A DNA stretch of 64,000 nucleotides from Bilabrum cf. latius (GCA_965178125.1 OZ237740.1:868001-932000), one strand, 5' to 3'. Shown: positions 328-64,000, counted from the first letter of the stretch. A program made the numbers and translations. Notes: generated by a model from the sequence alone, not told the origin.

Positions 328-2059
328 TCACATGCCAGCGCCAGAGGCCGCGCCTCCGCCCGCCTTGCTAGTAAGAGGTCGCACTTCGACCGTCTTACCG
401 CTCGTGATCTTGCCCCAGCCGATGAGCCTCCAATGCTTGTCAACTTGCCTGCTCAGGGCGATCTTGTCCCCGGGCTCTGCGCACACTGGCAGCGTTAATG
501 TCAGGGTGGCGATGTCACCCCTGACCTTGCCAACCCTGCCCGTGGTGCTCTTGGACCCGACATTGACCATGAGGCTCTCCTTCCTCTCCAGCTTGCGGAT
601 CTTCTGGTCCGTGCCCTCACCGGCGCGCACTCCCAGCAATCGTCGCAGCAGGTGGTACTGCACCTGAATTTCCTCGTAAACCATGGGCAGGTTGCCCCTG
701 TGCCCCAGGACGTGGCCCACAAGCCTATCTGCCCGGGTGAGGGTGGGGTCAATGCTGGTTCCCACTCCGATGAGGCCGCCCGGCACGGCGTACTGCAGCT
801 TGTTGGTCTCCGCCTTGAGATCCGTGACGGTGCTAAAAATCGGGGAGCACACGTTCTGCTTGGTGGCGGGGTCCCTTCGCACCAGCCCGGGGAGGATCTC
901 GATCTCGTCGCCCAGCTTGAGGACCCCCCTGAGGATGGACCCTCCCGCCACGCCTCCCTCCATGTCTTCGATCTTGTGCCCCGGTCTGTTCACGTCGAAG
1001 GATCGAATGACGATCATCCTGGGGCTGTTGGTGAAGTCTCTCACGGGGAGAGGAACCTTCCTCGCGAGGTACTCGCAGACCAGGTCCACGTTGTACCCTA
1101 GCTGGGCCGAGACGGGCAGGATGGGGGCGTTCTCGGCCACACCTCCGTCCAAAAAGGCCTTGATCTGCTGGTACTGCTCCTTGGCCTGGTCTCGGCTGAC
1201 GATATCGACCTTGTTCTGCAGCACGATGATCTTGTCCAGCTGCATGATCTCCACCGCTGCCAGGTGCTCTTGGGTCTGGGGCTATGGGCAAGGCTCGTTG
1301 GCAGCGATGAGCAGGATGGCGGCGTCCATCACGGCTGCTCCGTTCAGCATGGTTGCCATGAGAATGTCGTGGCCCGGGCAATCGACAAAGGAAATGTGCC
1401 GCACCAGCTGCATGGTTCTGCCCGTGCCGTCTTCCATGGGATACTCATCAGGGGAATTACTTCGACCAGAGGCGTAGACGTACGGCGGTGCGCTCGACCT
1501 GTAAATCTTCGCATTAGCGTAGCCAAGCTTGATAGTAATGTTCTGAGCCAACTCATCCTTGAACTTCACGGTCTTCACACCCGACAGAGCCTTCACAGTG
1601 GTGCTCTTGCCGTGCGCTACGTGACCTACGGTTCCGATGTTGATGGTTGCCTATCTCGAGATGATCTCGGGGGTCAGTGGTGTGAGAGATTCGACCTTGA
1701 GCCCCTCCAATGACTGCTCTTTCATGCCCTGCAGGAGATCAAATGGGAGGCAACAAGGGTGCGAGAAACAAGACTTGAACCGGTGCAGTTCTGCCAGAAC
1801 GAGGGACAGGGACAGTACTGGGAGCCTAGGCCAAAGCATAGCAACCCATGCCATTGCTTACCTCTCCAGTAGGCATCGGGGGCCCCTTTGCAGACCAAGG
1901 GTGAAGTTTCTCCGCGTCAAAGTCGGGTGCACGAACACCTCCTGCCCCACTGGCGGCCCCACTGCCCATCGACGACTTCAAAACGCTCTTTGGGGACTCA
2001 GAGCCTCCAACAGGACTAGATACACCACCTGCTGAGGCAGAGGTTGCAGGGTCAGACAT
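328..2059 (-). CDS. EIF2S3: Eukaryotic translation initiation factor 2 gamma subunit; exons 2059-1862 and 1728-328; two in-frame TAG (1651-1653, 1282-1284) read as Gln
   Basis: Motifs [60 protein letters not shown] and KHWRLIGWG. Phase-0 GT-AG intron at 1861-1729. Ends TGA. Confidence 0.96.
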
Positions 2060-25100: not shown

Positions 25101-25527
25101 GGGCCGCGCCGTGCTGCGCCGAAATCGCAGCGAGATGGACGCCAGAGAGGCAGGCAGCGTCGGCAGGAGCAGCGGCAGCGGGCTGGACGACGAGGCAGTT
25201 GCTCGAGTGCTTCGGCGGGTGAGGAGCGAGGGCGGGTCTGGGCGGAGTCGCACGAGCTCCGGCGGTGCGCAGGCCTCTGGCGCTGGCAGCGATGGCATCC
25301 AGGTGGTCTCAGCGAGCTTGGGCAACACAATCGACGGCCGCGCGTCCGTCAGCGGCTCGGTGGAGGACGAGGGCGGCGGCGACGATCGGCGGGGCAGGGT
25401 CGTTTCCAAGGGGAGTCTGGCCTCCGAGTCGGCGGCGTCGAGCGGCAGCGGCTCCCAGGGCCGCGGAGTGCCCTCGGCGAATGCGCTGGAGCGAGCCCTC
25501 ATGCAGGCATCGAATCCCACCGGTTGA
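13140..25527 (+). CDS. Giant (about 4000 aa) membrane class III nucleotide cyclase with two TM clusters and two cyclase domains, probably a guanylyl cyclase; 5' exons before about 13900 unresolved
   Basis: Introns at 14170-14295 and 14360-14459, then one frame from 14461 to 25527 with 19 in-frame TAG and no TAA/TGA. Domain 1 has YKVETIGATYM...VFGDTVNIASRM. Domain 2 has WCDLVGFT, KIDTIGDAF...MRVGVHSG..GIVGRMAPRFHVFG. Confidence 0.88.
14388..14412. repeat. (TAGC)n microsatellite inside a cyclase intron
   Basis: tagctagctagctagctagctagct. Confidence 0.9.
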
Positions 25528-37534: not shown

Positions 37535-40500
37535 TCTCTCTCTCTCTCTCTCTGCAGAAATACATTGTTGGGTAAAGATTCCACAAGCACCCAGATGCAC
37601 CGTTGCCCCCGAAGGAGTTCGAGTGATCACCTGAATCCAGAGGAGTCCTCAAACAAGGACTACAAGACCCCCGACCCTTTCAGGCCAAAGGCCCCCCAAT
37701 CTCAGCCTACACCGCCGAGTCCCCTTTATTCGCCATCAATGTGGTCCCCCACAAGCCCTCAGCCTGATGCCTTCACAGGGAGAAAGCATACAGGTGCGGA
37801 GCATGTGCCCGGCACAAAGCGCGGTCCAGTCCCACATCAGGGTCCCCTGCCGGGACCCACCATTTCCTCCTCCATGACCGTCTCTGCGTCTCACGGTCCT
37901 TCAGAGAGGCTAGCATGCACGCGCTCATGCCTTTGGCCCATTGCCTCTCTATGTCCCTTAGCAAGCCGTGGGGCTTAAACATCCGTCGCTGTAGCCGAGC
38001 GTTCGCATTGGTTGCCGCTATCAGCTCTTGCGTGGCCGTGGCGGCAAGAGCAGCCGCCGCATCGCCTCGCATCCACTGCCTGCACGTCAGCTACTCCTGC
38101 TAGCGTAGCTGGTTCCTGATCACCTGCACCACTCGGTTGGCCAGCTCCTTGATAGCTGTCCGTTCCGATGACCGCGCAATCGTACGCTCTATCCGAGTGA
38201 GTGCGTCTTCGACGATTGGCTTGGCCCTGCTGGTGTGCTCCAGCTTCTCGTCCCAAGGGTCCTGAGCGAGAGCTGTCTTCGCCCATGCTTTCCGGAGAGA
38301 GGCAGGGGACCTCCCTCTATTCTGATCCGCATCATCGGGTTGCCACGGTCTCGTTCCGGCATGATGGTCATGCTCGGCCCGCTCCATCTGCTCTACCGCG
38401 GTGCCCATCACTTGAAGGTTGGGCGTGCCCTGTTGCGGGTATTGTCCAGCTCGGATGCGCAGAATTCGTCTTCCTTGGTGGCCGTACTCCTGCACCACCG
38501 CTGCTGTTGGCATGGCTCCTGGTCCGAAGGCATACCGTCCCTTCGTTGCGTACCGGTTAAGCATGACCACTCCGAGCGCGGCTCTCTCCCGGTCCCAATC
38601 CGACAGTGCCGGATCGTGCGAGCATCCCAGGCTCAGACTTGTGAACGATCGGTCAGCAGCTCCGGATTTGGATTTCCTCCACTTTGTGACTTTTTTTGCA
38701 GTCTCCTGGCATCCCAGCCAGTCCTTCGCGTCATCGATCCGTTGGGTCCACCCTGCCATCTTGATCCTGAATCCCAGTGCCAGCGCGGCCCCGAGTGGGC
38801 CTGTCTGTACTGGTGGTCCCTGCAGGAATCGGCCCTGGTGGATGAACCTGGCCGCAACATCAAGGCCCTTCTTCTAGGGACACTCGATCAGGTCCAGCAG
38901 GCCCATAGCAACACGCCCTGCTGCCGATGCCGTCAGCAGCTCAGTGTCCATCGCAAGGTTTGGCACGTATCGACCGCCTATGGTGAAGGGCCTTACCTGT
39001 GTCGATCCGCTGACAATCATCCAGCGCATATCCAGCAGGAATTTGTCCAGCATCTTGAGGACTTCCAGGTTCAGTTCCATCCCGTAGAAAACTTGGGAAC
39101 CATATCCTAATCCTGACAAGGTGTCCCACCCTGTTGCACATGCCGCTGCCTCTGCTCCGTAGAATGCACTCGTGATTGCTCCTGCATGGAGCAGCTGGGC
39201 GTGCAGGGAGACCGCCCAGTTGCCGTTCACCGCCGCTCGTGTGATGTCCCTGGCCGCCCGGTACGCCATCGCAATCCTCCTGCGTACGTGGGGTGCCATA
39301 TCAATTACCCAGATGTCTCTCGCCTGCGTCAGCCCAGCTACTTCATCTGGGCTGATCCGTACCGGTTGGGTCGAAATGAGTAGACCGAGGTACAGGTAGG
39401 ATGAGGCAAGTGGGATGGTCCACTCCCCATCCGCCTCTCCCGCGTCCGCTGCTCTGCATGCGACGCCCTCTGGCATGTCCCCAGGAATTGAGTCCCGAGC
39501 GTAGCCAAAGGCCATGATCGCTGTCTTGGTTCCCTGGCCCGATGCTGTCAGGGGCTTGATTCCCAGCTACATGCCCGCAAGTGCAAACAGGCTCTTGACT
39601 AGCTTCATGACCGCCACTGCTTCGTTCCAGTTCGACGTCAGTGCCACGTAGTCGTCTGCGTACCCGACTTGTCCACATTCAACGTATCGTCCGGTGTCGG
39701 TCACGATCCTTTGATGGTGCCCGTGCTGGAGCCTCTCTTTCCGCAGCGTTTCCAGGAGAACCCCCATCAGTACCAGGAAGATGGTGGGAGACAGAATCTC
39801 GCCCTAGGGGGTGCCCGCCGTCTTCTGCACTCTGGTAGAGACCCTCCTGGTGAGTGGGTCTCGAACGCGGATGGCCACCTGCATGCGGGCCATGAGAAAG
39901 CGGACCGTCTGGCGTCCCCATCCTTGCTCCGTCATGATGGCCTCGATGATGTTCCACTTGCAACTGTCAAATGCTCCTTTGATGTCAAAGAATACCAGAA
40001 AACCTCCAGCACCCCTTCGTTGGGTAATCCATTCCATCACCGCTGAGTAGGCCTGCTGGCAGTTCTTGCCGATGCGAAATCCGGCCTAATCCTGGCCGAA
40101 GAGTCCGTGGTTTTCGCAGTACCACATGACCTTCTGGTTTGCGATGGTGCTCACGACCTTCGAGAGAGACGAGGTCCAGCATATTGGCCTGAATTCGTCG
40201 ACTCCTGTGACTCCTGTGCCCTGCTTGCGCTTGGAGACCGGCCGCATGAACCCCTCCTGAAAGGCCTCAGGCTGAATCCCCGAGAAGAGTGTGAGATTAT
40301 AAATGGCCCTGAGGAGGTCCAACAGAGCGTCACTTCGCCGCAGACACCCGTCCTCCTCAGAGCATGGCTAGCATTTGGTCAGCAATTCCGCCCTGATCCC
40401 ATCAGGTCCCACAGCTTTGTTGTGCTTGAGCTTGTCCAGTGCTTGATCCACCTCTGCGTTCGACCTGCAGAATAGGTTGAGCGGTGCCGCTGCCCTGGGC

Positions 40501-43500
40501 ATGTGCGGCGCAATCCTGGCCATAAATCCGCCCACATCCGCACTTCCATTCCCACCTGCGTGAGAGAGCTGCTGTGCGTGTGCCTCTAGGATATCCTCGA
40601 CGGCCGTAAGCACCTCTCCGCCTAGGTTCGTGACTGGTTCCAGTCCTGGTGCAGCTCGTTGCTTTCTAGAGATTGCATCAGCGATCTATCGGTGGGCTTC
40701 CCTCGGACTTGCTGTTCCCAGCATGTTCCGCAGTGCGTGGCCCGTCCTGCGTGCCCCTCGCTCGGTGGTCTCGAAGATAGCCCGTCGATCATGGTCCAGG
40801 TTGGCAAGGAGCATCGTCCAGTACTCCTGTCCCTCATGGGCCTACTGGTTCACCTCTGTGCTCCCCCAGAGTGTTGCCTGCATCCGTCCATCTAGCCCCC
40901 GCTGTCGCTCTTCGAGGCGCAGGCTGGCTCGGCGATGTGCAGCCAAGCATGTTCTGGCCTCTGAAAGAGCTTGTTCCGTGGTTGGTCCCGCGATAAGGGC
41001 CTTCAGGCTGGCATGGGCTTTTCCCCACGTTTCAGCCCATCTCGTCCGTGCCGCCCAGGTCCTGCGGTGGCGCTTGCGTGACGCTTCCACGTGCCCGGCC
41101 TGGCCGGTGTTTGCCATTTGTCGGCCTGTCACAGTCTCGGCTGCTGCCGTGAAACATCCTTGCAGAAGCAGTTTGACGGAGGACACGGCCTGCGTAACCG
41201 CTTGCCCTGCAGCCTCTCGGTCAGCCGAGGTTCCCGTCGAGCTTTTGAAGTCGCGAATTGCGTCGAGCACACAATGAGTGATGTCACGGACTGCACTTGT
41301 AGCCTACCCGAATTCCTTGACGTAATAGTCCCAAACCAGGTGTTCTTGCTGCACATGCATGTCGGACACCCGTGAGTACGCTGCCCTGAAGGGGGCGTCA
41401 TCGTCCTGCTCCGTTGTTGCTGGGACTGCAGTTGCTCGCATTGCCGGGTGCTCCACTTCTGGGACTGTGACCAGCAGGTCTGCAATTACCCCCGTGTGGT
41501 CTGAATATGTGCCTGGCTCTTGAGCCACTTCACTGGACACTAGCTGCAGCTGCGCAGAAGAGGAGATGCAGATGGCATCCAGTGTGTTGCCTCCTCTGTG
41601 CGTAGGCCCGCCCCCTGCAGGTGCGCGGTACATGTCGATCATGCCCATGTCGTTCTCCAGATACCAGTCCATCTGACCAGCTCCCTCTTGGTCCCGGCCC
41701 TACGTCGGGTTGAAGTCACCGGTAACCACAAGTCGGTCCCTGGTGAAATTGCCTGCCGGTCCTTGACTCCGTCGCTGTCCAAGGGTCAGCTGGGGATCGA
41801 CCACGAAAGCCTTGCCCAATACTGAGCCCCTTGTCTCTGCCCCGAGGGCAGCCCCTTGCGGTGGGTTGTAGCAGGCTATCACCGTCAGCATGCGTCTGTC
41901 GTGGTGCAGGACGTCACATACGAGGCAGTCCGGCGCATCCAGGTCATCATCTCCCATGTCTGCCCACCGTCTCAGTACGAAGCCTGAATCTCGTTTGACG
42001 GCGACGCATACCCCGTGTGGGGCTCCGTTTCCTGCCCTCGTCTCCATCGCGTACAGGTCCGGGACGTCAGTGACATAGCGTCCTCTAGCATCCTGTGTCT
42101 CCGTGCCAACAAACACATCGGGCATCTTGGTCTCCGTAAGGGCAACCTCCATCGCTTCGAGGTTCCCTTTGCGTCCCAGATTTTTGGTTGCAATCCTGAC
42201 CTGCTTGGGCGGGGTCGTGTCCATGATCCTGATCTGATCCCAGCCCCCGCGAGTACCTTGGACGCCTCGTGGCTGATGTGCCGTGCTTGTCCCGGGGGCG
42301 ACTAACCACACAGATTCTCGGTCCCCCACTACCGCATTGCGGTTATTGATCCAGGGGAAGCACTCCGGTATCCAGGTCCTATCGGTCCTCTGCTCATCCG
42401 TTAGCATCACCCGGAGAGCTCCAAGCAGTTCCGCCCCGGTCACTCCGTCCTCCCATTGGTCTCCTGGGCGGACTGATAGGACCATGACCGGTTCCTCGTT
42501 CAGTTCCCCTCTCGTTGACAGCGTACGCACAACTCTGACATCCGCATCTCCTTCCTCCTCCCGTTGCTCAGGTCGCAGCACCAGGCAGGCATGCCTCCGG
42601 GACCCGTGTCCACCCGGCGGATTGATTCCTGTAGGGATGAAGACCTCACAGTGGGTGCGGGAGATGGCAATATTCATCGTGCCCTGGATCGCTTGGTCAT
42701 CGGTGGCGTCCGAGTTGAGTCGCTCACACCAGTTGGCAAGGCTGGTCCCCTCTTTGTCGGCTGGGTGGAGTCGCACTGAACCCCCTCGCTGCTGTGCCAG
42801 GGCCATCACTGACAGTGTGAGTCCTCGCAAGCTAAGCCCGTGGATTCCTTCCCCTTCCTCGCCAAAATAGGTGCGGAGTGTGTGCATGATGGTGGAGCTG
42901 GGGTCTAGGCCAGCTAGAACGGCGAGGGGGAGCTACGCGCATCCCTGCCAGCCTAAGTGCTCTGGCGGCCCGAAGAGGTTACCCGTGCCTACCACGAGTG
43001 GTTCAAATGCATCGTACGGAGTAGTCAGAAGCGCAGTTCCTCCGCCGCCGGGACTCCAGAGGCACTCGGCCACACTGTGTGGGATCGACGTCAGGGTTTC
43101 CTGGAGGGACTTGCTTCCGGACGAAAATGAAAAACCGTGTAGCCCCGAGTCCATTCTCATACTCAGCGGTAGATCGGCTAGTCGTACTGCGGAGTAGTGC
43201 CCTCCTGCTACCCTGACGCATCCTCTCGCCCCGATTGATCCCATCGTCTCAGTCGAACTGGGCAGGTGGCGATGTAGCGAGAAGTTCTCTCCTTGGATTG
43301 CGATGCTCATGATGGCCGTCCTCGTGATCTCTGCTGCGAGCGTGACGGAGAGCGAGCAAGGTAGCTCTCCCACCGAGACTCCGTCTGCAGTGTAGGTAGC
43401 CACCGCCTGTTGGATATACCAGGCTACTTGGGCCTTGAAGGGGTCGCTAGTGCGGCGCTGGGCTGCGGCCACCAGCGCCGCTGCTTCTTCTCTTGCGTGT

Positions 43501-43620
43501 GCCCCTGCATCGAAGTCTCTCGTGGCCATGTCCGACCTCCTCGCATACACCGACACTGACAGTTGTAGTTGGGTAGTGTGTGCTTTGACTCAGACATATT
43601 ATATTCTCTCTCTGCCGCGC
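37535..43620 (-). mobile_element. Apparently full-length APE-type non-LTR retrotransposon (LINE family 1)
   Basis: One long ORF, a structured 3' UTR ending in GTATTTCTG, and TTCTCTCTCTGC-like sequence at both ends (about 37534-37555 and 43604-43615) as a candidate TSD. Confidence 0.88.
37773..43529 (-). CDS. LINE polyprotein, 1918 aa: N-terminal unknown region, APE endonuclease, reverse transcriptase and C-terminal domain; 12 in-frame TAG
   Basis: APE motifs IATKN, GTETQ, YNPP, VTGDFN, NTLDAI and SDHTGV. RT motifs KAVGPDGI, FRPI, D*AGFR, FFDIKGAFDS, GTP*GEILSP, GYADD and YLYLG. All ORF pieces are in one frame and the ORF ends TGA. Confidence 0.92.
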
Positions 43621-43719
43621 TAGGGCAGTTTTCAGGTTAACGCACACACAACCCATGAAACTAAAAAATATGTCAGTCATGAGCTGACCCGTACTATCTC
43701 TCGGAAGGCGCTCCGAACT

Positions 43720-45102
43720 ATGGATGAAGGGAGTAGCATCGCCGAGGAGCTGGAGCTACTGCAAGCTGTTTACTCGGCTGCTGGCGAACTCAACGTGACA
43801 TCAAGTGGCGAGAGCACCACGGTACGCATCAATCTTCCAATCGTCGATGCTTCAAAAGCATGGGACGAGTGTGATGCAGCAGAATTCAACACAGGCGAGA
43901 AGGGGTGGGGGCAAACTCAATCGTTCGAGTTGGTGCGCGACATGGTCGCCGATGAGTGGGCTGTAGCTTGCCAGAAGCCCGTATCTATCCATTTCAAGCT
44001 TCCGCCAGGCTACCCCGAGAAAGCGTCCTGTAAAGCATCCGTGGACCATCCAAGCATGGTCGGCTTGCAGCGAGACCACGCGTCCCATCTGGTCGCCGCG
44101 GTGTCGCAGGCCCCTGAATTGGTCGGAAGGGCTTGCATAACTGAAGTGTGCCCACTTGCTCGAACTATTGCCTTGCGCGGTATCGCGCTGTCTTTGCTGC
44201 AAAGTTACCACTAGAGGAGCGGAGCCCAAGGCAGCTTCGTCGATTGGTTGGAGTCCCGCCTGGGTTCAGCCGCTGGCGGCGATGGCCCAGAAGAAGCCAC
44301 TGAGCCTGGTGCACCAGCTCGAGGTCGAGCAGGAAGGCGCAGGAGGAAACGGGAAGAGAAAAAAGCCGCGGCACGCCGAGCAGCTGCTCCGAAGGCAGGG
44401 CTGCGAGTGATATGGTTCCACCACATTCGTAGCCCAACCAAGCGCAAGAACATACAGGAGTGGGCAGCTGAGCTGGGCCTGCGTGGTATCAGCAAGATCG
44501 GGTACCCGGGCGTTGTGGTGGTGGATGGCGAAGACTCCAGGTGTGACGAGTACATCAGCCGGCTCAGGGCACTTCGCTGGAAGGCAATGGCGCTCAGGGC
44601 CCAGGAGACGTATGGGGGCCACACGGCTGACGCCAGTGGGGGAATTGCCTCGGCAGCACCAGCAGGCACGGGCAGCAAGTGTGAATCCAGCAGTGCCAGT
44701 TTGCCTGCTACTACACCTCCTGCATCACCAGCTGCATCTTTAACGGCTGAGTCGGGTACTTCGAGTGCCGGTGCTAGTGCTGGGGCTGGTGCTAGTGCTG
44801 GGGCTGGGGCTGGTGCTAGTGCCGGTGCTGGTGGTGGGCCGCTGGCTGACCCACCCGCTGCCACGCTGGAGTCGCTCCGCGTGTTTGGATCGGAGGTGGG
44901 GTTCAGAGAAGTGTCCGACGCCGAGGGGGGCGGGATGGGGGCAGTGGCAGATCTCCTGAAGTCGGTTGGGAAAGAGGGGCTGTTCCGCACGGCGGTGCTC
45001 AAGATGCCAGCGAAGGACCGCGACTTGGGCGAGGCTGGGGCTGGGGGGGCAGCTGGCGGTGCCTCCAGTGCAAGTGGCGAGCAAACTAGAGAGGGTAAGT
45101 GA
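43720..45102 (+). CDS. RWD-domain plus DUF1115 protein (RWDD2-like)
   Basis: EELELLQAVY and FKLPPGYP (RWD). IWFHHIRSPTKRKNIQEWAAELGLRGISKIGYPGVVVVDG (DUF1115-type). The halves join via TAG at 44212-44214. Confidence 0.8.
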
Positions 45103-45183
45103 ATCTGCAGCAATCAGAGCAGACTCTCTTTGCTACTAGAGAGGGTAAGTGAAACTGTAGCAATCGGAGCAGACTCTCTTTGC
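45085..45183 (+). repeat. 50-bp-period tandem duplication spanning the RWDD2-like stop codon
   Basis: actagagagggtaagtgaa(t/a)ctg(c/t)agcaatc(a/g)gagcagactctctttgc starts at both 45085 and 45135. Confidence 0.9.
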
Positions 45184-45296
45184 CCCGGGGAGCCCTAGAT
45201 GTGAACACCGAATTTCCGCGGCACTCTTTGAATCGCTTGGAAACCCCGAGAAATACAAGGCAGGTCGCATAATATGCGCACATTTTCATCCTACAT

Positions 45297-46181
45297 TCAT
45301 GAGTCTCTCTGCGAGCTAGCAAGCAGAGATGTTGCTGCTGCGGCCACAGCCACGACCAGCACCGCAACCGCTGAGGGTCTGCCCTCCGAGAGCCCCGCCA
45401 CGCCATTCTTGATCGAGGGCGTGCACACAACAATGGGATTATCGTTACCATCGAACTCGTTTGTCTTGAAGGGCTGTCCAGGAAACTGGGCCCGCCAATA
45501 TATAGGAATACCGTTCTCGTCCACATCGTCCCCAGATTCTGGCTCGTCACCACCGTAGTACTGCGGGCTACCGCACCGATACATGTCCTTCGAATATCGG
45601 CAAGACTTGAAAAAATTCTCGCATACGCTTCTGCACATTAGCAGGGAGCGATCTTCGGCGTCGCAACGCGGGAAGTTCAGCCAGCAAAAGTAGTTCCTGT
45701 AAGCCTCCTGACAGTCCTCATTATCGGAGAACCGCTCTGCTACCGATCCTGGAATACCGTGCTCATTGACTCCTTGCCGGGCAAGAGATCGGTTCTGCTC
45801 AACAGAAAGTCTCTGATCTACCATGCGCTCGTAGTTCAATCGAACCCAATCGTCTTTGGCCGAGATCGTATGGTTCGAGTAGAGCTCCTGAAACTTGGGC
45901 ATGCAAGCTCTGTAGCGTACCGTACCTCTACAGAACGGCAAGAAGCTCTCGAAGTCATCAAAGTCAACGCATTCACCAGATTCGTGCCCTTGGATTACAC
46001 AAGCAAGAGAGCCCTGCAGCAAAGCTGCAAGCGCTAACAACGACCTGCAGCGGCCACAGATAGATGAGACACTATTTGAACCCATGTATCGTCCTAAAAA
46101 ATACGGCAATGTTTTGCGCTACAAGGGAATAATTAGAAGAAAGGCAACTGCAAGCGTTGAAGCCAACGCACTCGTCATCAT
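45297..46181 (-). CDS. Secreted or GPI-anchored Frizzled-type cysteine-rich domain protein; 5' structure uncertain
   Basis: LPFCRGTVRYRAC and CQEAYRNYFCWLNFPRCD..LMCRSVCENFFKSC, with hydrophobic N- and C-termini. Ends TGA. Confidence 0.7.
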
Positions 46182-46295
46182 GGCACCGCGGATCCAGACC
46201 AGCCACTGGCAGCGCGAGGTGGAGCCTCAGCGCAGCTCGTCGCTAGCAATCCGCGGGTAGCTAATGCAACGCGAACTCAGCAGGGACAGACAGGC

Positions 46296-49200
46296 TCACG
46301 CAGTGATGTCCCACGTGATGGCATGCTTGCCACTCGACACATCGACACCCTTCGGGAACAGCAGGTCGTGCCCTCCCACGTTGGCGCTCACGTAGTACTG
46401 CACGACGTCCCCAGCGCGGGCCCCGGTGCTGGACACCAGATCAGACCTGAACCAGCCACGACCTTCAGCGGCCCGATCCATGCCAGCGCACTGAAACTGA
46501 CCGCCGCCTCCGCCAGCCGCCAGCTTCGTAAACCCGCCGACCGCCAGCAGCTCCGTTGCCGCCGCCGCCCTCCAGCACAGCGACACCCGAGCGCTTCCCA
46601 AATCAGCGCTCTTGCCCAGCACCAGGGCCTGCAGGATCGGCCGCCCCCACCTCCCGGGGAGACTCACCTTGGTCGATTCCACGGGCTCGGGCACGGACAG
46701 CACCGGCGCCTCTCCCACGTAGTCCATGGACGGCAGGTTCCCGGCAGGCACGTCGATGTACTCGGTGAGCAGAGACTTGGGATGCAGCACCCCGCCTTGG
46801 GCCATGTTCGTCTGCAGGTCGCTGATCACGCCCAAGTCCCCCATACTCGCCAGCGTCTTGTACACGAACCGTGTTACGTTCTCGTAGGCCCTGGAGCACG
46901 CGTCGATCGCGGGTAGCCCGATCTTGTGCGCGAGGCCGAAGCGCTCGCCCTCCGGTGCGGCCTAAATGCGCTGCCAGGCCCCTTCAAAGTCCTTCACTCG
47001 CAGCTTTAGCCGCTGAGCAGCTTCGCCCAGCCGGAAGGAATCGGGCCAGTATTCGAACTTGGCGTTGTAGTAGGCATCCGGCAGTCGGCCCACGAGCGGG
47101 GCAAAATCTCGCTCGATGAATGCATAAGTTGCATCCAGCGCCGCATCGCTCTCGGGAACGTTGGTGCCCACGTCAAACGTGACGTACGGGATGGGTGAAT
47201 CGGTCCACGTGTCGTTCCCGTCGATGCGGAGGAAGGCCTCCACGATCTCATCGAGGACACTGCCACTCGCTGCGAATGACGAAGCAGCGAATGCACGCCA
47301 CATCCCCGGCGCAGTTGCGTTCTGCACGAGTGCGTGAATATCGCTACGAGATGCAGGCGCTGATTCCACGGTGGAGATGCCAGCAGCCTGCAGCACATCG
47401 CACGGATTGCCTGAGAGCTTCACGGGCGCAGAAAGCTGCGAGCTCGAGGCCGGCCCACTCGAGCACGAGGCCGGTGCCGTGAGTCGCTCGAAGGCCATGA
47501 GCTGGGGGCCGACCTGCTGCGTCCTCCAGTGTATCGAGAGCATGCCCGTCACTCCCGCATCAACTGCCTGCTACACGTGCCTGACCATGCGGGACAGCCA
47601 TAGCTGCGGCCCGAGCAAACCCCTGTCGCCTTCCAGCCACGGGATCGCCCACTTGCCTCTCCCGTGGATCGCAGAATAGGCCGGGTCCTCGTCGCCTCCG
47701 CCTTCGTTGGGGAGGAGGGAAGTGATGGTGACGTTCTTTGCCGCAACGCTATCGATGTAGGTGCTGTTCCCGATTGGCCCAAGAGCCCACCCGCCGGACG
47801 CCAGCCGCAGCGTGTCCCAGCCTTCGAGCGATGCAGCCTGTTGCGCGATTTCGAGCTCCTATGCAACCGCCTCCCAGTCGGGTAGCGTATTTTGGATCTA
47901 AGCCCACAGCGTCAGGTACTTCACAACGTCCTCTCCGTACAGCAGTCTGGCCCGGCGAAGCATGCCGCGGTACGATGCGAGCACGTTGGGGCGAGTGCGT
48001 GGCGGGGGCTGCGGGTGATCTTTGTTCACGTACGCGGTGTAATGCCACGCGGACTGCTGTACTTGCGCCGAAACGTTGGTCAAGCGACACGCGAAGTCGT
48101 GGTCAGCCACGGGACCAGTGCGGTCGCCGTGAGCATCTGCAGCGGCTAGCATCACCTGGGGTGGGACGCCGTGGTCAAAGCAGGCGCAGTTCATCCGATC
48201 ACACAGATCCATGCACTCTTGCAGGCTTTCGTTGCCGACGTGGATGCTGCTGTGCGCGTTGCCAGTGCAGTAATTGTCTTTGTAGACGTTGTACTGCGCG
48301 GGGCCCGATATCACGACTCGCCCCGGGTCGGTCGCGTTGGCCGGGAAATTCACGGAGAGTGGCGTGCCCACTGCCAGGCTCATGCCGATACCGACGGACT
48401 TGCACACCTCGGAGACACCCGCGAAGAATCTGCCGCCTTGCTCGTGGGTCTGGTATGCAGCATCGCTGTTGGCGGCCGGCTCGGGGCAAGCATCGTCGGC
48501 CACGATGGTCTCGGCGCCCAGCCTCCCGCACTCGTGGCGGAATGATGCCGCCAAACCGCAGAAAAAATCGCTCGTGTTGGTTGGAGTGGAGCTGCCTCTG
48601 CCTGCCGGGCTGTCGGCTCCATTCAAAGTGGACCAAAACCACGTAGGGTAGGCGGCGTAAGGACTCACCAGGCTGCCGTTTGGCATCAGCAGGCCAGGCG
48701 GTCCAAACCACGTGATCATCTGAGCTGTATAATGCCTGTGGTCATCGCTATTGTAATTGTGCAGCTAGAACACGTTGGATCCGCCAGAAGCAGATTGCTG
48801 TAGGAATCGAGTGTAGCCCTCCTCGGACCAGTAGTCAGGACCCGTTGAGAAGTCATGCCATGGGAAGAATCCACGCTGATCAAATGTCTCGTGCAATCGA
48901 ATGCTGCTGTTCTACCTTGCCAATCGCGCTAGGACAGAGTATCCCGCCTCATCCATGCTTCGATCTTGAGTGGCGGCTATGCTAAGGACACGCTTCAGTA
49001 GCCCAAGACCCGCTTGAAGATTGCGAATGCTTGCAACTTGGACCTGCACTGATAATCCAAAGCCTGTTGAGGCTCCAAAGTGAAGGGAAGCGACGTTGGC
49101 CTCAAATCCGTCCTGTTCGAGATTAGCAGTGCTATCATCACCACAGCGAACATTGATCCGACCGATCTGCAGCCACGGATCAATTTGCTCTAGAATGGAA

Positions 49201-49331
49201 GCTGCGCGGACAGGGAACGCCATGCCATCATGTCCGCAGTTCTTGGACACCTCAATCACAGTAGTTGCAGTTGCCAGCTATAGGCTTGATAGCGCGACCG
49301 TGCAAGCCAGTACCACTTGAAGCAGATGCAT
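46296..49331 (-). CDS. Secreted glycoside-hydrolase-like protein (about 1011 aa, intronless) with a Cys-rich PAN/apple-like insert
   Basis: Signal peptide MHLLQVVLACTVALSSL*LATAT. Motifs RGFFPWHDFSTGPDYW, GGWALGP, KWAIPWLEGD..PQLWL and GMLSIHWRT. Four ORF pieces join via TAG. Ends TGA. Confidence 0.6.
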
Positions 49332-49413
49332 CGGTAGATTGTTGCAAGTATTCATTAAATACGCAGCTCAGATTCAAGAGCTAGACCAGCCCTATACATC
49401 TAGCTACTAGACT

Positions 49414-49433
49414 CTGAAATCTGAAATCTGAAA
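49414..49433 (-). repeat. (AGATTTC)n LINE-type tail repeat, second copy
   Basis: Plus-strand ctgaaatctgaaatctgaaa, the same unit as at 49621-49646. Confidence 0.6.
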
Positions 49434-49685
49434 AAGTCGTATCATTACATTCACTCATCATCATCACCTTCGAGATCTCACAATGGACCCTCGTCCAAAG
49501 CTCAAACTCTGTGGCACTCGTCGAGGCTCCCGAGTTCACTCAGGATGACCTAGCAGCACCTACTGCCCGCCGTGGTGGGGTTGTGGTGCAGCTAAGGCTC
49601 CTGGATCCTCGGGCTCGACCAAAATCTGAAATCTGAAATCTGATTTAGGGTCAAGCATAACCGAACAATGGGTGCTGCACAAGAC

Positions 49686-50681
49686 ATGCTTTCGGACCAG
49701 GAGCCATGGTGACAACAGCGGCAATGCAGGAGTACGGTCATCAAGGAAGACGAATCCTGCGCATCCGAGCTGGACAATACCCACAGCAGGGAACGCCCAA
49801 CCTCCAGGTATCGGGCACCGCGGTAGAGCAGATGGAGCGGGCTGAGCATGAGCGTCACGCCGAAACGAAGCCGTGGCAACCTGATGCCGGGGATCAGAAT
49901 AGAGGGAGGTCGCCCGCCTCTCTTCGGAAAGCATGGGCGAAGACAGCTCTCGCCCTGGATCCCTGGGACGAGAAGCTGGAACACACCAACAGGGCCAAGC
50001 CAATCGTCGAAGGCGCGCTCATTCGGATAGAGCGCACGATTGCACGGTCCTCGGAACGTACAGCTGTCAAGGTGCTGGCCAACCAAGTGGTGCAGGTGCT
50101 CCGAAACCAGCTGCGCCAGCAGGAGCAACTGACATGCAGGCAGTGGATGCGTGGTGATGCGGCGGCTGCCTTAGCCGCCACGGCCACGCAGGAGCTGATA
50201 GCGGCAACCAATGCGAACGCCCGACTACAGCGACGGATTTTCAAGCCCCACGGCTTGCTAAAGGATATAGAGAGGCAATGGGCCAAAGGCATGAGCGCGT
50301 GCATGCTCGCCTCTCTGAAGGATCGTGAGACGCAGAGACGGTCATGGAGGAGGAAATGGTGGGTCTCGACCGGGGACCCCGATGTGGGACTGGACCGCGC
50401 CTTGTGCCGGGCACACGCTCCGCACCTGTATGCTTTCTCCTTGTGAAGGCAACAGGCTGGGGGCCTGTGGGGGACCACACTGATGGCGAAGAATGGGAAC
50501 TCGGCGGCATAGGCTGAGAACGGGGGGCCTTTGGCCTGAAAGGGCCGGGGGTCTTGTAGTCCTTTGTTTTTAGGGCTCCTCTGGATCTAGGTGATCACCC
50601 AAACCCCCTCGGGGGCAACGGTGCATCTGGGTGTTTATGGAATCTTTACCCAACAATGTATTTCTGTATATTTCTGTATTT
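49686..50681 (+). mobile_element. 5'-truncated LINE family-1 copy A
   Basis: ORF 49706-50446 is nearly identical in protein to 38520-37773(-), followed by the same 3' UTR and GTATTTCT tail. Flanked by CAAGAC at 49680-49685 and 50682-50687. Confidence 0.93.
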
Positions 50682-50684
50682 CAA

Positions 50685-50960
50685 GACCGCGCATTATGCC
50701 GGGCCCACGCAGTATGCCTGTGTGTCTACGGATACCCGAAATAAAGGCTCCGGGACTGCTGCGAAGGAGGGCTTGAAGGCGACAAAGGGAGGTCCCAACA
50801 TCAGGGCCGGTATATGGGGGGCCTTTGGTCTGAAAGGGTCGGGGGTCTTGTAGTCCTCTTATGAGGGCTCCTACCGCTGCAGGTGATCACCTGAGATATG
50901 GTGCATCTGTGGCGGGTTCGGTAACTTAACCCAACAATGTATTTCTGTATTTCTGTATTT
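50685..50960 (+). mobile_element. 5'-truncated divergent LINE family-1-related copy B
   Basis: Begins gaccgcgcattatgccgggcccacgc (DRALCRAHA) and has the ggcctttggtctgaaaggg block and (GTATTTCT)n tail. Followed by CAAGAC at 50961-50966. Confidence 0.82.
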
Positions 50961-56687: not shown

Positions 56688-59600
56688 TCACGACACTACG
56701 CACTGCCCAGAGCCATCCCCCCCACCATGCCCTTGCCCAGGCCGGATCCTCCCGCCTTGCTCCAGCCTGAGAGCCTCACCCTCATCTCCTCTGGCTCGAG
56801 CCAGCCGCACGCGCAGCTCCTACCGTCTCCGAAGCTGCGCGATCGTCGCGTCGTACACGGAGACTGCGTCCACGCCGGCCTCGCGAGCGGGGTGCTCGCC
56901 GTCACGATAGCTGAAGTGCAGCTCCTCGGCCGCCCCCCCGAAGCGCAGCCTGTACTTCAAATTCGCCGCTAGGCGCACGGCGGGGCGCAGCCGCCTCGTA
57001 CCATCCGGAATCGAAACCCGCATGGTCTCCCAATGGCTGCTGACACCGAGCACGCCGGCGCCGAAGTCGTGCAATGCATAATGCACGGTGCCAGTCAGCG
57101 TGTCTACAACGGTCCTCACAAACAACCGCTTGTGATCCAGTTTCTTGTGAATCGTCTCGTAGTTGTAGCTTCGCGCGTTACCGAAGGACTCGTTTCCGTG
57201 CACCAGCTGGCCTCCCGAGTCGCAGTTGAGCGCCCAAGAGTGCGCGTCGATTCCAAACGAGTTGGCGGACTGGTTGGGGACAGGGAAGAACTCGGCATCA
57301 ACCCAAGCCAGATGCAGCTGGAGGGCTTGTTGGCCGCCAGTTGGCTGCACCTCCACTTCGAATGCAATCACGGGACGCAGCTGCCTCAGCATCTTTGCCG
57401 TCTCAGTTGCGGGCGAGTCGTCCTTGGCCTACGGGAAGAATGCCTTGAATTCCCGCAAAGTGGGGATGCCCACGGGGAACCCGGGAATTCTCGCGGTCAG
57501 GTGCACGAAGGAACCCGGGGATAGCAGCCTGACGGGGTGGCCGTTGGATTCCGAGGCGAGACCGGCCACGGGATCTCTGAACATGCCAGACTTCTCCTTC
57601 TGAAGAATCGCCTTCTTCAGCCTGTCAACGTACTCCTCGGCAGTCTCTGTCGAGACCGCCAATGGTATCGCTGGCCCGCCACTCGGAGCGCCATTGCTCT
57701 CGAGCACTTGCAGCGGCAGCCGTAGGGGCATCTCTTCCGGAGTTTGAGGCTCGCCATCCGTTGCGAATGCAGTGGACGGCCCACGCATGAGGGCAGGTGG
57801 TGCCGCGAGGGGGTCTGACGGAGAACCTCCTCCGCCAGCGCCCGCCCCCGAGGCTGGCCCTGACTCATCATCGTCCACCTGCATTGCCCTCGCAGCTAGC
57901 GCCAGGTCGGCCCCCGCGGGTATCGCCGCAGCAAACGCGTCCTCCCCCTCTGCCAGGTCAGGCGACTCGCCTGCTTCCGCCTGCTTCTGCTGGGCCTCGG
58001 CCAGAGCGCGCTGCAGCACCGGTGATCTCTCGAGAACCCACGAGCCTAGCGACCTGTACCCACCCTTGCCAGGCGGCGGGCGATGCTGGAAGGGTTTCTA
58101 GCCCAGGTTCAGTCGCACCGCGTGACCCAATCCGATGGTGGCAGCAAACACCAGGCCCCCGGTTGCCTTCACGTCACGGTGTGCTACGCCCCACGGCGCC
58201 TCCCACGATCCGTTCAGGGAGTAAGACACTGTTCCTTCAAACATGTCAATGGCAATCCCAATCGTGTTCCCTGGCCTGGCCCAATCGGTTCCAAACTGCT
58301 CGCCAAACGGCTCGGGCTCGCCGTCGCTTCCAAGCTTGCAGGGTCGGTCCACAAAATCTTCATCGGTAAATTCTGGAGACACCGCACTCACCGAGAGATC
58401 TTCTCCGTCAGCGGATCCACTCGCAGCCCCGCCACTCGCACCACCACTCGCACCATGAGAGGACAGTGAGGCAGCACCGGTAGCCTCACCGCCAGACGGC
58501 GCCACACCATGCATCAAAACACCAGGGAACGCTACATTCCTCTCGTCAATGGACACCACTTGCTCTGCGTCAGCCTGGATAGCGGTGCCCATTGCAACGT
58601 TCGGCATTGGCATACCGTGAAAGCTAAAGACGTCGTCAAGCATGGCAGTTGGAGCGGGAGTCGCTTCCTCGCGGGCAGTGTCGGCGTGCTTGCCCTCATT
58701 GGCCTTGGCAAATGCTTCAATCTTGGCCAGCCGCTTACTCATGCCTGTTGATTCGTACCATTGCACCAGATCGGAGCAGAACGGTTCAACTCTAGCCCTG
58801 CATATCGCTGCTAAGCTGTAGAACGCTGCGTTGTCAGGGCGTCTATGCGGCTTCGTTAAAAGCCATTCCGCTGCCAGGGAGGCATTAAAAGTTGGCATGC
58901 TTTGATTACTTAGCCGAGCACCGAGTCCGAGCCTCGATCCGTACATTGGCTGGGATCTGAGGGCGCACAGCATAGTAGCTTGCCGCTGGCCGTAGTTCTA
59001 CGAAAACAAATTTCCCGTCGTCCCCTAAGCGACAGATTCCATGGGAACGAAGCCAACCTGGATGTCCGCTTCCAGCTGTGCCTTCGTGAGCGTGTACGAC
59101 GCCTTGTCCCCAGAGACTGCAACCTTCCACTGCTCCAGGCTGGCCATCTTGCTGTGCGCTGCAGCGGCATGCACCTCACGAAGCTGCGCAGGGGTCAGCC
59201 CGCTCACCTTGTTGAAGTCTAGGACCTCGAGCTCGAAGTACCAGCGGCCTCGTGTGATGCCTACGGTTGGCACGTGCACCACTGCAGAAAAGAGATTGTT
59301 CCTTCTGATCGCTTCTCCCTATAGTATGCTGGATACGTCCCCGCGGAACATGGTGCCGTCCGGCTTGATCTCGACGTCATTGGAGCCAGAAAGTCCCTGC
59401 ACTGGAACCGGGCGCCCCGCGCGCAGACCCGCTCGCTGCACGAGCTGCACCTCGCGCTGCAGGTCAACCAGCCGCTACACGCTGCCTGCGGCCGAGATGG
59501 ACGGACGGTACACGAAGCTGCGCTCCCCCAGATTCACGCCAGCCACGCCCCTGCAGTCCATTGACACCCCAACATTGACGCCCCCAGGCGTAGCCATCAG

Positions 59601-62600
59601 CCGATCCGCGCAGCTGTTCGCAGTGGAAGCTGGCGCAACTCCCACGAACTCTGGCGCATCCTCCAGGACAGGGATTCGGCTATACTCTGCAGACGTTGTG
59701 TCTTGGGACGATGCAGCGGCGGACGCGCCAGCCCCTGCGTCTGCTTGAGGTCCCACAGAGATGACCGGGTGCCCATTCAACGAGAACACGATCCTGCGGT
59801 GATCGGTGTCGATGCACATGCCAACCATATCGGAGATGCGAAGGGGCCTACAAGCAGGTGCACCACAGCGTTGAGCATTGGCCCAAATGAAGCCATCGTC
59901 GCCGAGTGCAATCGTATCAGGATGGGAGCCGATGCCGACGGTAGACCGCACGCTACCCTTGAAGCTCGTGACGCAGATGCCGATCAACACTGCCGGAGGC
60001 TGCAGGACCGCCTCCAGATCCAGATCCAGATTTGGATCCGCAATCATGTCTGTTCCAGCTTTCTTGGCCTCGACTTTCTTTGCAGCCTCGATACGCCTGC
60101 GAAGGCCCGCAATCATGGAGCCCTTGGCATTTGGCACTGGTCGATCCTCCACCACCAGATCGTCCTCAGGGCGGGCTGGCACAGTGGCATCTGGTAGTGC
60201 ACCAAAGAGGTCTTCTGAAGTACGAAGCATCTAAAACTCGCACGCAAACACGCCTGTACCGCTTTGCAAGGCAATAGCTCTCGGCTGCACGGTGACTACA
60301 CTCGACCGGACCGTTGGGGCAGACAGCACACCATCGGCACGAGTGATGGCAGCGCCACCCGAGGTCACCACCAAGTCGCCAATGTCCTCCAAACTGCGCG
60401 CCTCCTGGTGCAGGGGCTCTGCATCCGCGTACGTTTGCTATCGCAGCAGCCCAGGCGCTCCCAGCCGGTCACGACTGCGGCTGCCATCCTCCGACTCCTC
60501 CTTGGATTCGGCAGCTCTCGCCCCCTGCTGCGACGCAAGGAGGTTGTCAAGCCGTTTCTTTTGCAGCGACTCAAGCGCACGTCTGGCCTGATCCTCTGCT
60601 CGACCGTAAGCAGCTGCTCGGCTCTTGAGAGCGCCAGCTAGCACGCCTAGGTAACGCTCCACTCGCCGCGCTGCCCTGTCGGCCTCCTTGTCCGCTTTGG
60701 CAGAGAGCTCAACGAGTGTTTGCGCCCTCGTCGGTGGTTCCAGCGCCTGCTGGAACATATGCTTGCTCACCAGCCCTGCGCCATCCGTCGCAGACGAATC
60801 GATGAGCGCAGCCAAATCGCTGGCCGCTGCATCCACACCGATGGTGGGCAGAGCAGCAATGAGCTCGGACGGCGAGGCGTGCTCGCCAGTAGTGCCCCAG
60901 CGGATCTTAGACAGACCGCGAGGGACGGATCCGTGCATACGGATCAGTGCAGTGCGGATTTGCGCTGCAATCGCACGCAGCTTTAGGAATCTGAGCTGCA
61001 ACCGGCTGGTCATCACGGTAGCCAGCGGGGTTTGATCCCACCCAGACGCCTCTCTTCTTCGCTTGAGCACCATGTTGAAATACAGCTTGGATCGTTCCTG
61101 CGTGGGACTTGATCCCAGCGCAGCCAGAAGATGGGCCAGCTCGCTGTCGGTGAAGACAGTTTCCAGGTTGAAGAATCGCGCGGCCTGCAGCGGGATATTC
61201 GCTGCATCGATCCGATCCGCAGTGACGAGAGCGTCTGCTGCCCCGATGGATGACCCGGCCGCCCCGGCTCCACTCGCCGCGCCGCTCCCAGCCCCACCCA
61301 CCGAAAGGACCACGTCAGTTGCGCTGCTAGATTTGCCATATTCTTCTCCCTGCACAAGCTGCTGAGCTGTGCTTGGGGCAGCAAGAGATTCGTCCAGGTA
61401 CAGCTAATCCAACGCCACACCGTCCGTATCTACGAGCTCAATGGAGGCCTTCGCAACTCGCTCGTCATGAGAAGGCCACACTCGTCCCAACAATATATCC
61501 CTGGCATCCGTCACGTACGGAGACCTGGCGTGCAGTGCCCGCCTTAGCGCCGCGACCTCCTCAAGATTCACTGTGGAAACGCCACCAGCAAATCCAGGGC
61601 CGCGCACTGCATGCTTCGGCGGGTGGGGCTAGCCCCTCGGCGGCGGAACCCACTTGAGCACTACCATAACGTTCTTTAGTGGCCACATTGGCTCCGTGTA
61701 CGCTTCGCTTGTCGGCGGCGTATGGTTGTAAGAAAGCAGGAAGTTGTGCGGCATGTCAAGATCTGGGGCATCCTCCCACAGGCGGACAGCCTAGTACTCA
61801 GCAAGGCTCATGCCCTCCACGAGCTTGTGCCGATGCAAAGGAGACACGTCGAAAGCAGCAGCAGCCGCGACTCTGGCTGCATCGGACAAACCAGCAATGG
61901 AGCGATCAGACATGTGCGCCTCATCGAAATCAACGGGCAGCGTGAGATCGGCCAATGCCCATTGCTTCGGGAAACGACATGCGTCTCGATCGCGTGGTGC
62001 AGTGACAAGCTCTTGGAGCACTTCTTGCTCCTTCTCTTGCTGTTTTTCCTGCTCACGTTCCTGGGTGACTTCCTGCTGACTCACTAGCTCTCCGTCAAAC
62101 CCAACGATCCGAGCTGCTGCGTATTCGACAGCAGCGTCTCCTCCCAGCACATCGTCACCATCTGCAGTCCCTTCATCATCGGCGGCAGTTTTGCTCTCGG
62201 CTGCACCAGATGAAGCATGCTGCTGCTCCTACAACTCTCGCTGCCTCTCCCTGGCAGCTCTTATTCTGCGCTGCAGGCTGCTATCTCGGGAACTTTGAGC
62301 GTCCGCTACGGCCAGGAGAATAACGTCCCGAGCCGCCGTTCTCGCGTCCCTGAGCGCCTCAGACGCATATCCTCGCATGGTTGTATCATCCCCAACAATA
62401 TCGCGCCACTCATGGAGCATTCTCTCTAGCTTCTGCGCGAATCCGATCGGAGGCTCGATAACGGCCGGCACATCGAACTCGAGGGGGTCCAAGAACGCCT
62501 CCACGCACCGCGAGAGTAGTTTCTGCCGCTTGTCCACCCCAATGAGAACGTCAGATCGCTTCAGGTCGTAGCGTGTCAGCTTCTTCTAGGGCATACTATG

Positions 62601-64000
62601 GGCAAGCTTCTTCCTCGCGAGTCTACTTCTGGATCCACCAGACCTGAAGCTGCTGGTGGAGCCCCCAGACCCAACGCCAGTCAAGTAGGTGTCATCTGGC
62701 GACTGAGAACCGAATTTTTCTTGGAGCAACTCTTTCGTCCCAGTGTCTGCATGGTACTCGGTGAGAGCGCGCGAATCAGCGAACCTAGTGACAAGTGGCA
62801 TCAGCCTAGCACCCTGGAACATCCTTTCGTACGACAACAGGAAGGGGGTAGGCGGCCGGAGCCCGGGCGTGTCGATCAGTGGGAAGAAGGCCTGCATGTG
62901 GGTGTGCCAGCCCAGGAACCCACTGGCTATGTTGCCAAAAGATCGATCGCTCGAGCCGTCGGAACCAGCTGCACTAGCAACGGGCACTGCCGCAGCGCCC
63001 CCAGAAGCTGCACCTGCACCGCTGCTCGGTCCTGATTCATGCGACAGTATCTCCAAGATTGCCTAGGCCAGCATCGCCCTGGACGGTGGGTGGAGCACCG
63101 TTGCACCCGAAGCACCCTCCTCAGAGTCGCCGTAGCCAGAGCTTTGCGCCCCCTGGCGGAACGCGCGCAGCATCCTGTCTCGCAGCGCCGTCAGCTATTC
63201 GCTAGACTCAGCATCTCCACGAATAAGCGTTCGCAGTGTTCTATCCCTCACGCGATTACCCACTTCGCGTTGCATGGCGTCATTGTTGAATATAATGCCA
63301 TCGTCTCCGCTGAGCGTGAGTGGCTCGCCTGAACACAAACCGGGCGGTCCGCTCTCCCTTGCCTTCCGGCCGTCATGCGCGGCCAGGTACAGCTGGCGCT
63401 CGACCAAGAAGGGTGGCAGCGGCTCCGACCGCAGCGTCTTGAGCGCTTTCTGCCTCCAAATGTTGGTAAGCCGTAGCTAGCACAGGGACAGATGCTGCAT
63501 GTGCTCCGAGCGAATGGACTTGGTGACCAGCCAGGCCACCACATCGCGCGGCAGGAAGCCGGTGTCCGACACCTCTCGCACCCTAGACAGCACCTCTGGA
63601 ATTACAGCAACGCTGAGTTTTTGTCCTTGCCCCAGACCGCGCATCCGATAGCAGCCCTGTGCCATGTCACGGAGAGTCATGTCATTGGACAAAGTGACCA
63701 CGGCCCGGGCATCGAGGCCCTGCTTGATGTCTTGGCCAGTGGTGTGGGCGTGGTCAAATACCACAAATCGCGCGTGCGGCGCAAGGCCGCAGTCCTGGAG
63801 CGGAATGGTGCGACCGCTCGCTCGCATTACCGCCATCTGTCTACCAGCGTTGTCGATGAACACGCAGCCCTTGAACCGGGGACGCAGCTTGCTCAGAATG
63901 AAACGAGCTGCCTGTTCGTTCGACATTCCAGTGATCAGAGCCCCCGTGTCGATCACCGCATTGTACGGCGGATCTGCTTGCGCGATTGATGTGAGCAGGC
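56688..64000 (-). CDS. C-terminal part (over 2400 aa, 5'-partial) of a giant DUF3638/DUF3645-family-like protein with SPRY domains and a terminal CaaX box
   Basis: IDTGALITGMSN, FDHAHTTGQDIKQ..AVVTL..RDMAQGCYRMRGLGQGQ and QEREQEKQQEKEQE. SPRY motifs GRWYFELEV, DMVGMCID and GNTIGIAID. Twelve ORF pieces are in one frame, each ending in TAG. Final residues GQCVVS-TGA. Confidence 0.8.

Follow-up and report, generated by a model that had tools for sequence, protein, structure and literature searches.

UAG as a probable glutamine codon in host genes and retrotransposons of Bilabrum cf. latius

Background

Nuclear genetic codes that split UAG from UAA are rare; the accessible portions of the literature report one case each from a fornicate, a rhizarian and a green alga, besides some ciliates. 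Reassignment of UAG alone to glutamine has been described in Iotanema spirale (Fornicata) (PMC5304391, PMC9161772) and in the ciliates Hartmannula sinica and Trochilia petrani (phyllopharyngeans) and Protocruzia tuzeti (PMC11687900, PMC10553269). Here we analyze a 64,000 nt stretch of the Bilabrum cf. latius genome (GCA_965178125.1, OZ237740.1:868001-932000; hereafter the window), in which in-frame TAG codons occur both in host genes and in copies of long interspersed nuclear elements (LINEs). Comparison of these sequences indicates that the nuclear code very probably reads UAG as glutamine genome-wide, while UGA (the main stop) and UAA remain stops.

In Iotanema, as predicted here, UAG is glutamine and UAA and UGA are stops; a tRNA(CUA) derived from tRNA-Gln(CUG) was predicted there, with no genome in which to find it (PMC5304391). 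The two systems differ in that Iotanema eRF1 carries a T32G substitution in the GTS motif, which is intact here, in that its primary stop is UAA, whereas here it appears to be TGA, and in that the lineages are unrelated (PMC5304391). Hartmannula, Trochilia and Protocruzia likewise reassign UAG alone to glutamine, but they are ciliates, whereas the present organism branches with stramenopiles; the accessible text reports that no suppressor tRNA was found in the ciliates with glutamine codes studied there (PMC11687900). In codes where UAR is glutamine (Tetrahymena, hexamitins, ulvophytes and oxymonads), UAG is read through a tRNA(CUA), as here, but UAA is glutamine as well, whereas here TAA is never found in-frame and serves as the stop of eRF1 and of one dynein gene (PMC11687900, PMC5304391). 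The "genetic code 15" of crAss-like phages also combines TAG as glutamine with retention of the other stops, but in phage genomes within bacteria and with other release factors (PMC9523058).

The finding is a further instance of a known rare code type, UAG-only glutamine, in a probable stramenopile. No case of a nuclear UAG glutamine code in stramenopiles or Bilabrum was found in the literature searched (mostly outside subscription journals and supplements), nor is one described in the examined parts of a stramenopile review, two Halocafeteria papers and a culturing review. An earlier report of such a stramenopile code could well exist, at somewhat short of even chances. In a stramenopile, this code would represent a further independent origin, located in a major group and in a genome that is rich in G+C and has UGA as its main stop. 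The source assembly (eukaryotic, 48.6 Mb, 111 contigs) unites tRNA(CUA), eRF1 and glutaminyl-tRNA synthetase (GlnRS) genes, a combination lacking in the papers cited on UAG-only glutamine codes. Two questions thereby become testable: how an eRF1 can lose UAG yet keep UAA, and what the source of the decoding tRNA is.

Glutamine opposite TAG in host genes

When TAG alone is treated as sense, the window (approximately 59% G+C) contains frames of 3775, 2436, 1938, 1070, 1063 and 1023 codons, with zero TAA inside any of them. TAA was tried as a sense codon and rejected, as no long frame is gained in the window and the long frames opened by TAG carry no TAA; TGA was likewise rejected, with window frames of 704 codons at most. 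The host genes with TAG include the following:

328..1728, minus strand: main exon of host eIF2-gamma, with TAG at 1651-1653 and 1282-1284 and stop TGA
14200..25527, plus strand: host adenylate/guanylate cyclase frame of 3775 codons, with 24 TAG, 0 TAA and a TGA end
56688..63998, minus strand: 3' part of a giant host frame with a SPRY domain, with 17 TAG (18 further TAG in locus L091)

In the conserved-domain matches compared, the only internal stop-type codon is TAG: there are 24 in 18 of 43 DEAD matches and 20 in 12 of 28 dynein AAA_6 matches, with no TAA or TGA inside these 71 domain matches. Residues opposite TAG were tallied among dynein paralogues using 19 heavy-chain stretches and columns at least 75% conserved among the other paralogues. 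Glutamine stands opposite TAG in 20/28 such columns, compared with 154/202 for CAG and 20/29 for CAA. The residue profile built from 207 dynein TAG positions has its highest correlations with those of CAG (r = 0.97) and CAA (r = 0.94), the next codon being GAG (0.76), and the tyrosine share is 0.007 opposite TAG vs 0.38 opposite TAC. At conserved DEAD columns (27 of 30 loci had a usable frame), TAG faces glutamine in 4/4 cases.

At each of the two eIF2-gamma TAGs, glutamine is found in 116/116 homologues. In assembled contigs from two runs (X5 and X6), spliced at a GT-AG intron (1727-1861), both TAGs match the DNA with 0 other letters; this evidence consists of contigs for one gene, and the RNA label of the runs is guessed. 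The gene also occurs in publicly available runs, which stem from three or more studies. Two database eIF2-gamma proteins, P0003 (99% identical to that of the window) and P0005 (93%), lack the first TAG site, beginning downstream of it, and have glutamine at the second, a pattern hinting at TAG/CAR differences among relatives. Standard-code gene calling will truncate proteins of this organism, P0003 being an example. A scan of metagenomes for eIF2-gamma (80 of 518 loci kept, the best 67% identical) found no in-frame TAG in the aligned part.

In 34 long frames, TAG makes up 426/4102 glutamine-type codons (10%), a figure that is approximate since the frames run from stop to stop, and it is less frequent in genes with high G+C at third codon positions. 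The giant frame (window 56688-63998 plus L091) exceeds 5700 codons and holds at least 35 TAG; its DUF3638 and DUF3645 domains lie upstream of SPRY, in L091.

Stop codons and release factor

Gene ends were judged by conserved C-termini or by there being no TAG beyond the last conserved residue. The 14 ends judged in this manner comprise 12 TGA, 2 TAA and 0 TAG, a sample too small to exclude rare use of TAG. TAA terminates eRF1 and a dynein gene (L129). UGA thus appears to be the main stop, with UAA also used.

The eRF1 protein retains GTS, E55, NIKS and S70 but (in human numbering) carries the substitutions S60V in TASNIKS and L126M, N129S and K130H in YxCxxxF. Its gene itself holds two TAGs. 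The first corresponds to position 44, which is glutamine in human eRF1; the second corresponds to position 69, which is leucine in human and yeast and glutamine in entry 8ip8. A GlnRS of normal eukaryotic type is also present (L167).

These data bear on a dual code of the Condylostoma type, in which UAG would be glutamine inside genes and a context-dependent terminator near some mRNA 3' ends. The intact eRF1 motifs are compatible with such termination, as is a Cdt1-like frame (L089) in which TAG immediately precedes the terminal TGA. We nevertheless consider a dual role unlikely: TAG was found at none of the anchored gene ends, and two dedicated stops are already available.

A candidate decoding tRNA

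Of 780 candidates in the tRNA search, 63 were scored, yielding 48 matches; 37 of the 39 nuclear ones were compared, and the host list is incomplete. A single tRNA(CUA) gene was found (G000:C23:907607-907679, minus strand, 69.8 bits). It forms a regular cloverleaf and is a single-copy gene lying between host genes. A CUA/UUA-loop pattern recovered this gene too, and none of its four matches was a tRNA(UUA), this pattern being blind to intron-bearing genes and GATC T-loops. The tRNA(CUA) pattern had 0 matches in metagenomes.

The ancestry of this tRNA is mixed in appearance. It matches host tRNA-Tyr(GUA) at 12/14 acceptor-stem and 8/10 anticodon-stem positions, and the sum of 20/24 is higher than for all 311 pairs of other isotypes (maximum 17). 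A 5 nt variable loop and the pair C1-G72 are also as in tRNA-Tyr. In contrast, position 73 is G, like that of tRNA-Gln(UUG), and not A, and the D stem is identical to that of tRNA-Gln(UUG) (8/8), although an equal match occurs in 45/311 pairs of other isotypes. The T arm is nearest to that of tRNA-Ser. Against the incomplete host list, the possibility that tRNA(CUA) is a lightly mutated tRNA-Gln was rejected, as its acceptor stem agrees with tRNA-Gln(CUG) at just 6/14 positions and with tRNA-Gln(UUG) at 2/14; in this it is unlike the decoder predicted for Iotanema (PMC5304391).

These features permit a second alternative, that UAG is read ambiguously or chiefly as tyrosine through the Tyr-like acceptor stem. 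In the accessible part of a review of tRNA identity, the eukaryotic tyrosine determinants are A73, C1-G72 and G34, and bacterial glutamine determinants include G73 and U35, while no eukaryotic glutamine identity set is given as validated (PMC9976931). The stems shared with tRNA-Tyr and the C1-G72 pair are thus in favor of tyrosine. We judge this reading very improbable for three reasons. First, no tyrosine stands opposite TAG in 46 conserved dynein columns, in agreement with its minimal profile share. Second, the tRNA carries G73 and C34 rather than A73 and G34. Third, none of 18 exchanges among LINE copies (described below) joins TAG to TAC or TAT.

Several non-glutamine amber suppressors are described as turning glutamine-accepting (PMC9976931, PMC1483225, PMC2965240). 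In E. coli, CUA tRNAs of Trp, fMet, Ser, Asn, Lys (with G73) and yeast Tyr origin take glutamine via U35 and G73 (PMC9976931, PMC1483225), but those are laboratory mutants charged by a bacterial GlnRS, whereas the decoder here would be natural and eukaryotic. From its stems, we place the descent of tRNA(CUA) from a tRNA-Tyr, with a later switch to glutamine, at about an even chance, because the host tRNA list is incomplete. A fuller account is more tentative and rather doubtful as a whole: an unreported change in the stramenopile nuclear code with a decoder not descended from tRNA-Gln, whereby a G34 to C34 change would have turned a duplicated tRNA-Tyr(GUA) into an amber suppressor, which later gained glutamine identity (G73 and a Gln-type D arm), the amino acid of UAG being fixed by synthetase recognition of U35 and G73 and not by the parent tRNA.

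With glutamine as the predicted meaning of UAG, decoding could proceed as follows. The tRNA(CUA) would be expressed and charged by the GlnRS of L167 through U35 and G73, and the charged tRNA would outcompete an eRF1 whose UAG recognition is weakened, putatively via S60V, L126M, N129S and K130H. UAA lies outside the reach of a CUA anticodon, which would explain why UAG alone was reassigned.

The assembly also holds scattered A+T-rich genes for tRNA(CAU) (G000:C3:1096678-1097064, C5:282086, C7:1154419, C3:1133102, C9:698618 and C25:323122). Their acceptor stem is identical to that of tRNA-Pro(UGG) at 12-13 of 14 positions, a possible second cross-isotype tRNA recruitment in this genome.

TAG in the LINE elements

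An earlier note on the window had proposed that TAG behaves as a synonymous glutamine codon, based on LINE copies that swap TAG for CAG or CAA. The elements concerned are as follows:

37555..43562, minus strand: family-1 (subfamily A) copy of a retrotransposon without long terminal repeats (non-LTR), 5'-truncated, frame 37773-43589
39567..40202, minus strand: reverse transcriptase (RT) domain, Pfam RVT_1, E 5e-15
41496..42146, minus strand: weak match to an APE-type endonuclease, Exo_endo_phos, E 0.005
38091..38102, minus strand: the two TAG codons quoted in that note, residues 1830 and 1833 of the open reading frame (ORF)
49686..50666, plus strand: copy A, a subfamily-B 3' fragment of approximately 1 kb with 89.5% identity
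51056..54268, minus strand: family-2 RT element of 1070 codons with 10 TAG

The family-1 frame runs through 1938 codons, among them 12 TAG but neither TAA nor TGA, to a terminal TGA. Two of its TAGs lie within the RT motifs D-Q-x-G-F (40086-40088) and P-Q-G (39804-39806). The Exo_endo_phos match upstream of the RT scores 17.1 bits, under the curated Pfam cut-off of 24.5, and the region has no relative among solved PDB structures. The element resembles APE-type non-LTR retrotransposons in its RT domain, 5' truncation and tandem-repeat 3' tail and may share an upstream endonuclease with them, but it differs in that a single frame spans over 2400 codons and the endonuclease match falls under the Pfam cut-off.

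The codons on which the proposal was based are all real. The minus strand reads CGC TAG CAG GAG TAG CTG at 38105-38088, with TAG at 38100-38102 and 38091-38093, and copy A reads CGC CAG CAG GAG CAA CTG at 50114-50131, placing CAG (50117-50119) and CAA (50126-50128) opposite the two TAGs. Family 2 has CAG at 53024-53026 (GAPQGEI) and 53306-53308 (GRDQMGF), facing family-1 TAG residues 1262 and 1168. These codons are too small a sample to carry the proposal: copy A offers 2 TAG columns in 253 codons, and the proteins of the two families are 31% identical, with TAG paired with CAG in just 2/17 aligned TAG columns, namely the two RT-motif sites cited. Four codons are insufficient for a glutamine reading because CAG to TAG is also a common nonsense transition. 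The description of the window copy as a full element was incorrect; it ends at approximately 43562, whereas in copies L002, L005, L006, L017 and L018 the same frame continues 5' for approximately 2 kb more.

Of 182 candidates in a genome search for LINE copies, 36 were scored and yielded 45 matches; 30 of these plus copy A were used as loci. Among the matches listed, family-1 copies fall into two subfamilies, whose identity to the window copy is approximately 99% and 84-86%; most have the same 3' end, terminating in a (TATTTCTG)n tail, but varying 5' ends. The main comparison was between the window copy and the subfamily-B copy L017, both with unbroken frames, over 1937 codon pairs that include 464 synonymous and 323 non-synonymous codon differences. 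Of 19 TAG columns, 1 is unchanged; the others pair TAG with CAG (8), CAA (2), GAG (2), AAG (2) and CAC, TTC, CGG and CTG (1 each). The exchange of TAG with CAG and CAA is therefore preferential but not exclusive (10/18 have glutamine partners), with 0 partners among TGG, TAC and TAT. This share is comparable to those of the standard glutamine codons (22/34 for CAG and 16/33 for CAA). Exchange at synonymous rates, the test suggested in the earlier note, was also found: CAG-TAG swaps (8/50) occur at a rate similar to CTG-TTG (8/64; p = 0.6) and higher than that of pooled non-synonymous first-position C-T swaps (14/295; p = 0.007). Other one-step stop-type transitions in this pair are TGG-TAG 0/37, TGG-TGA 0/36, CAA-TAA 0/21 and CGA-TGA 0/21. 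Family-2 copies were too similar or too short to provide additional exchanges.

Under a third alternative, the LINE copies are decaying and the common CAG to TAG transition has introduced these TAGs as nonsense mutations. Consistent with some decay, 3 TAG, 1 TAA and 2 TGA are private to single alignments among 39 partly overlapping local alignments, and TGA occurs in two diverged family-2-like fragments. Decay of TAG alongside TAA and TGA, which the note had named as contrary evidence, is not the pattern observed: 18 TAG columns are common to copies, compared with 0 TAA or TGA columns. A code-blind simulation expects gains of approximately 8 TAG, 6.6 TAA and 8.2 TGA, where 7, 0 and 0 were observed, and it draws one third of TAG gains from tryptophan or tyrosine codons, where none were observed. 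Furthermore, frames remain intact between subfamilies separated by the differences counted above, and essential host genes, eRF1 included, contain TAG, which refutes decay as the explanation; we assign it next to no probability. The LINE families are instead predicted to be translated by the host machinery, such that TAG, a minor third codon for glutamine, interchanges by drift with CAG and CAA while TAA and TGA are purged.

Several structural features of these elements were also noted. Longer copies (L162:4201-7000 and L163:4712-7001) are extended at the N-terminus, in frame with the endonuclease and RT, by a region of hydrophobic segments and RG repeats that also has a polyQ tract with TAG codons scattered through it. 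ORF codon 463 varies among copies (CAG 6, TAC 6, TAG 2), TAG being a one-step intermediate between CAG and TAC. In window 50667-51056, L006 and L020, family-1 3' ends adjoin each other and a family-2 3' end, and the L006 3' flank is identical to the window from 50930 onward. This arrangement suggests that LINEs repeatedly insert into the 3' ends of other elements.

Weighing the glutamine reading

The proposal that TAG is a glutamine codon is supported beyond the LINEs by host genes and by the tRNA(CUA) gene. Several observations weigh against it. Two Prp8 TAGs at conserved columns face proline (117/118) and histidine (118/120), not glutamine; for comparison, Prp8 CAG faces non-glutamine residues in 26/97 conserved columns. 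The share of glutamine among neighbors of TAG (0.048) shows no clear excess over background (0.042) and is uninformative. Among the LINE exchanges, 8/18 have non-glutamine partners. Overall, tRNA(CUA) is no closer to tRNA-Gln (0.65 identity for UUG and 0.64 for CUG) than to tRNA-Tyr(GUA) (0.67) or tRNA-Glu(CUC) (0.65), and its C1-G72 pair is a eukaryotic tyrosine determinant (PMC9976931). A last alternative keeps the code standard and has U-to-C editing or small introns take TAG out of the mRNA; its probability is negligible given that the spliced eIF2-gamma contigs (with the scope stated above) keep both TAGs and that a tRNA(CUA) gene exists.

Placement of the organism

A Prp8 tree was constructed with FastTree from 47 sequences (46 of 120 matches plus the query, with most land plants dropped) and 2269 columns. 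The query groups with oomycetes and ochrophytes (support 0.992), yet lies outside the oomycete-plus-ochrophyte group, on a long branch in this single-gene tree. Its neighbor is P0243, whose cluster holds the EukProt protein P0362 (73% identical). For cox1, the sole taxon-named match is Saprolegnia. From these sequences, the organism is likely to be an early-branching stramenopile and is probably a single-celled flagellate. The Prp8 protein itself (L078) has a long low-complexity N-terminus and, relative to homologues, an insertion of approximately 150 residues near 640-795 that may be an in-frame intron.

The mitogenome (G000:C111; L071-L073 and L082) is 38.4 kb in length with 21-27% G+C, reads TGA as tryptophan and encodes a tRNA(UCA). 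It also holds a 1063-codon lysine-rich frame, the end segment of which we take to be rps4-like. According to the accessible text on the bicosoecids Cafileria and Cafeteria, their mitogenomes likewise combine TGA as tryptophan with a tRNA(UCA) (PMC6723347, PMC6972860), and by this analogy a bicosoecid identity is plausible. There are two 18S rRNA types in the assembly: a tandem array of a short divergent 1700 nt gene on C12 (L075), and a 1802 nt gene (G000:C95:6099-7900; L074) on a contig of 17.9 kb. We take the latter gene to be dinoflagellate-like, and its contig is probably from another organism.

Other features of the window

Approximately seven 87 nt units stand in tandem at 11779-12383, within open frames of both strands. 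A repeat at 9163-9558 and 10963-11200 has high depth in the runs compared; its segment at 9486-9558 matches the LINE 3' tail and is probably another short element end.

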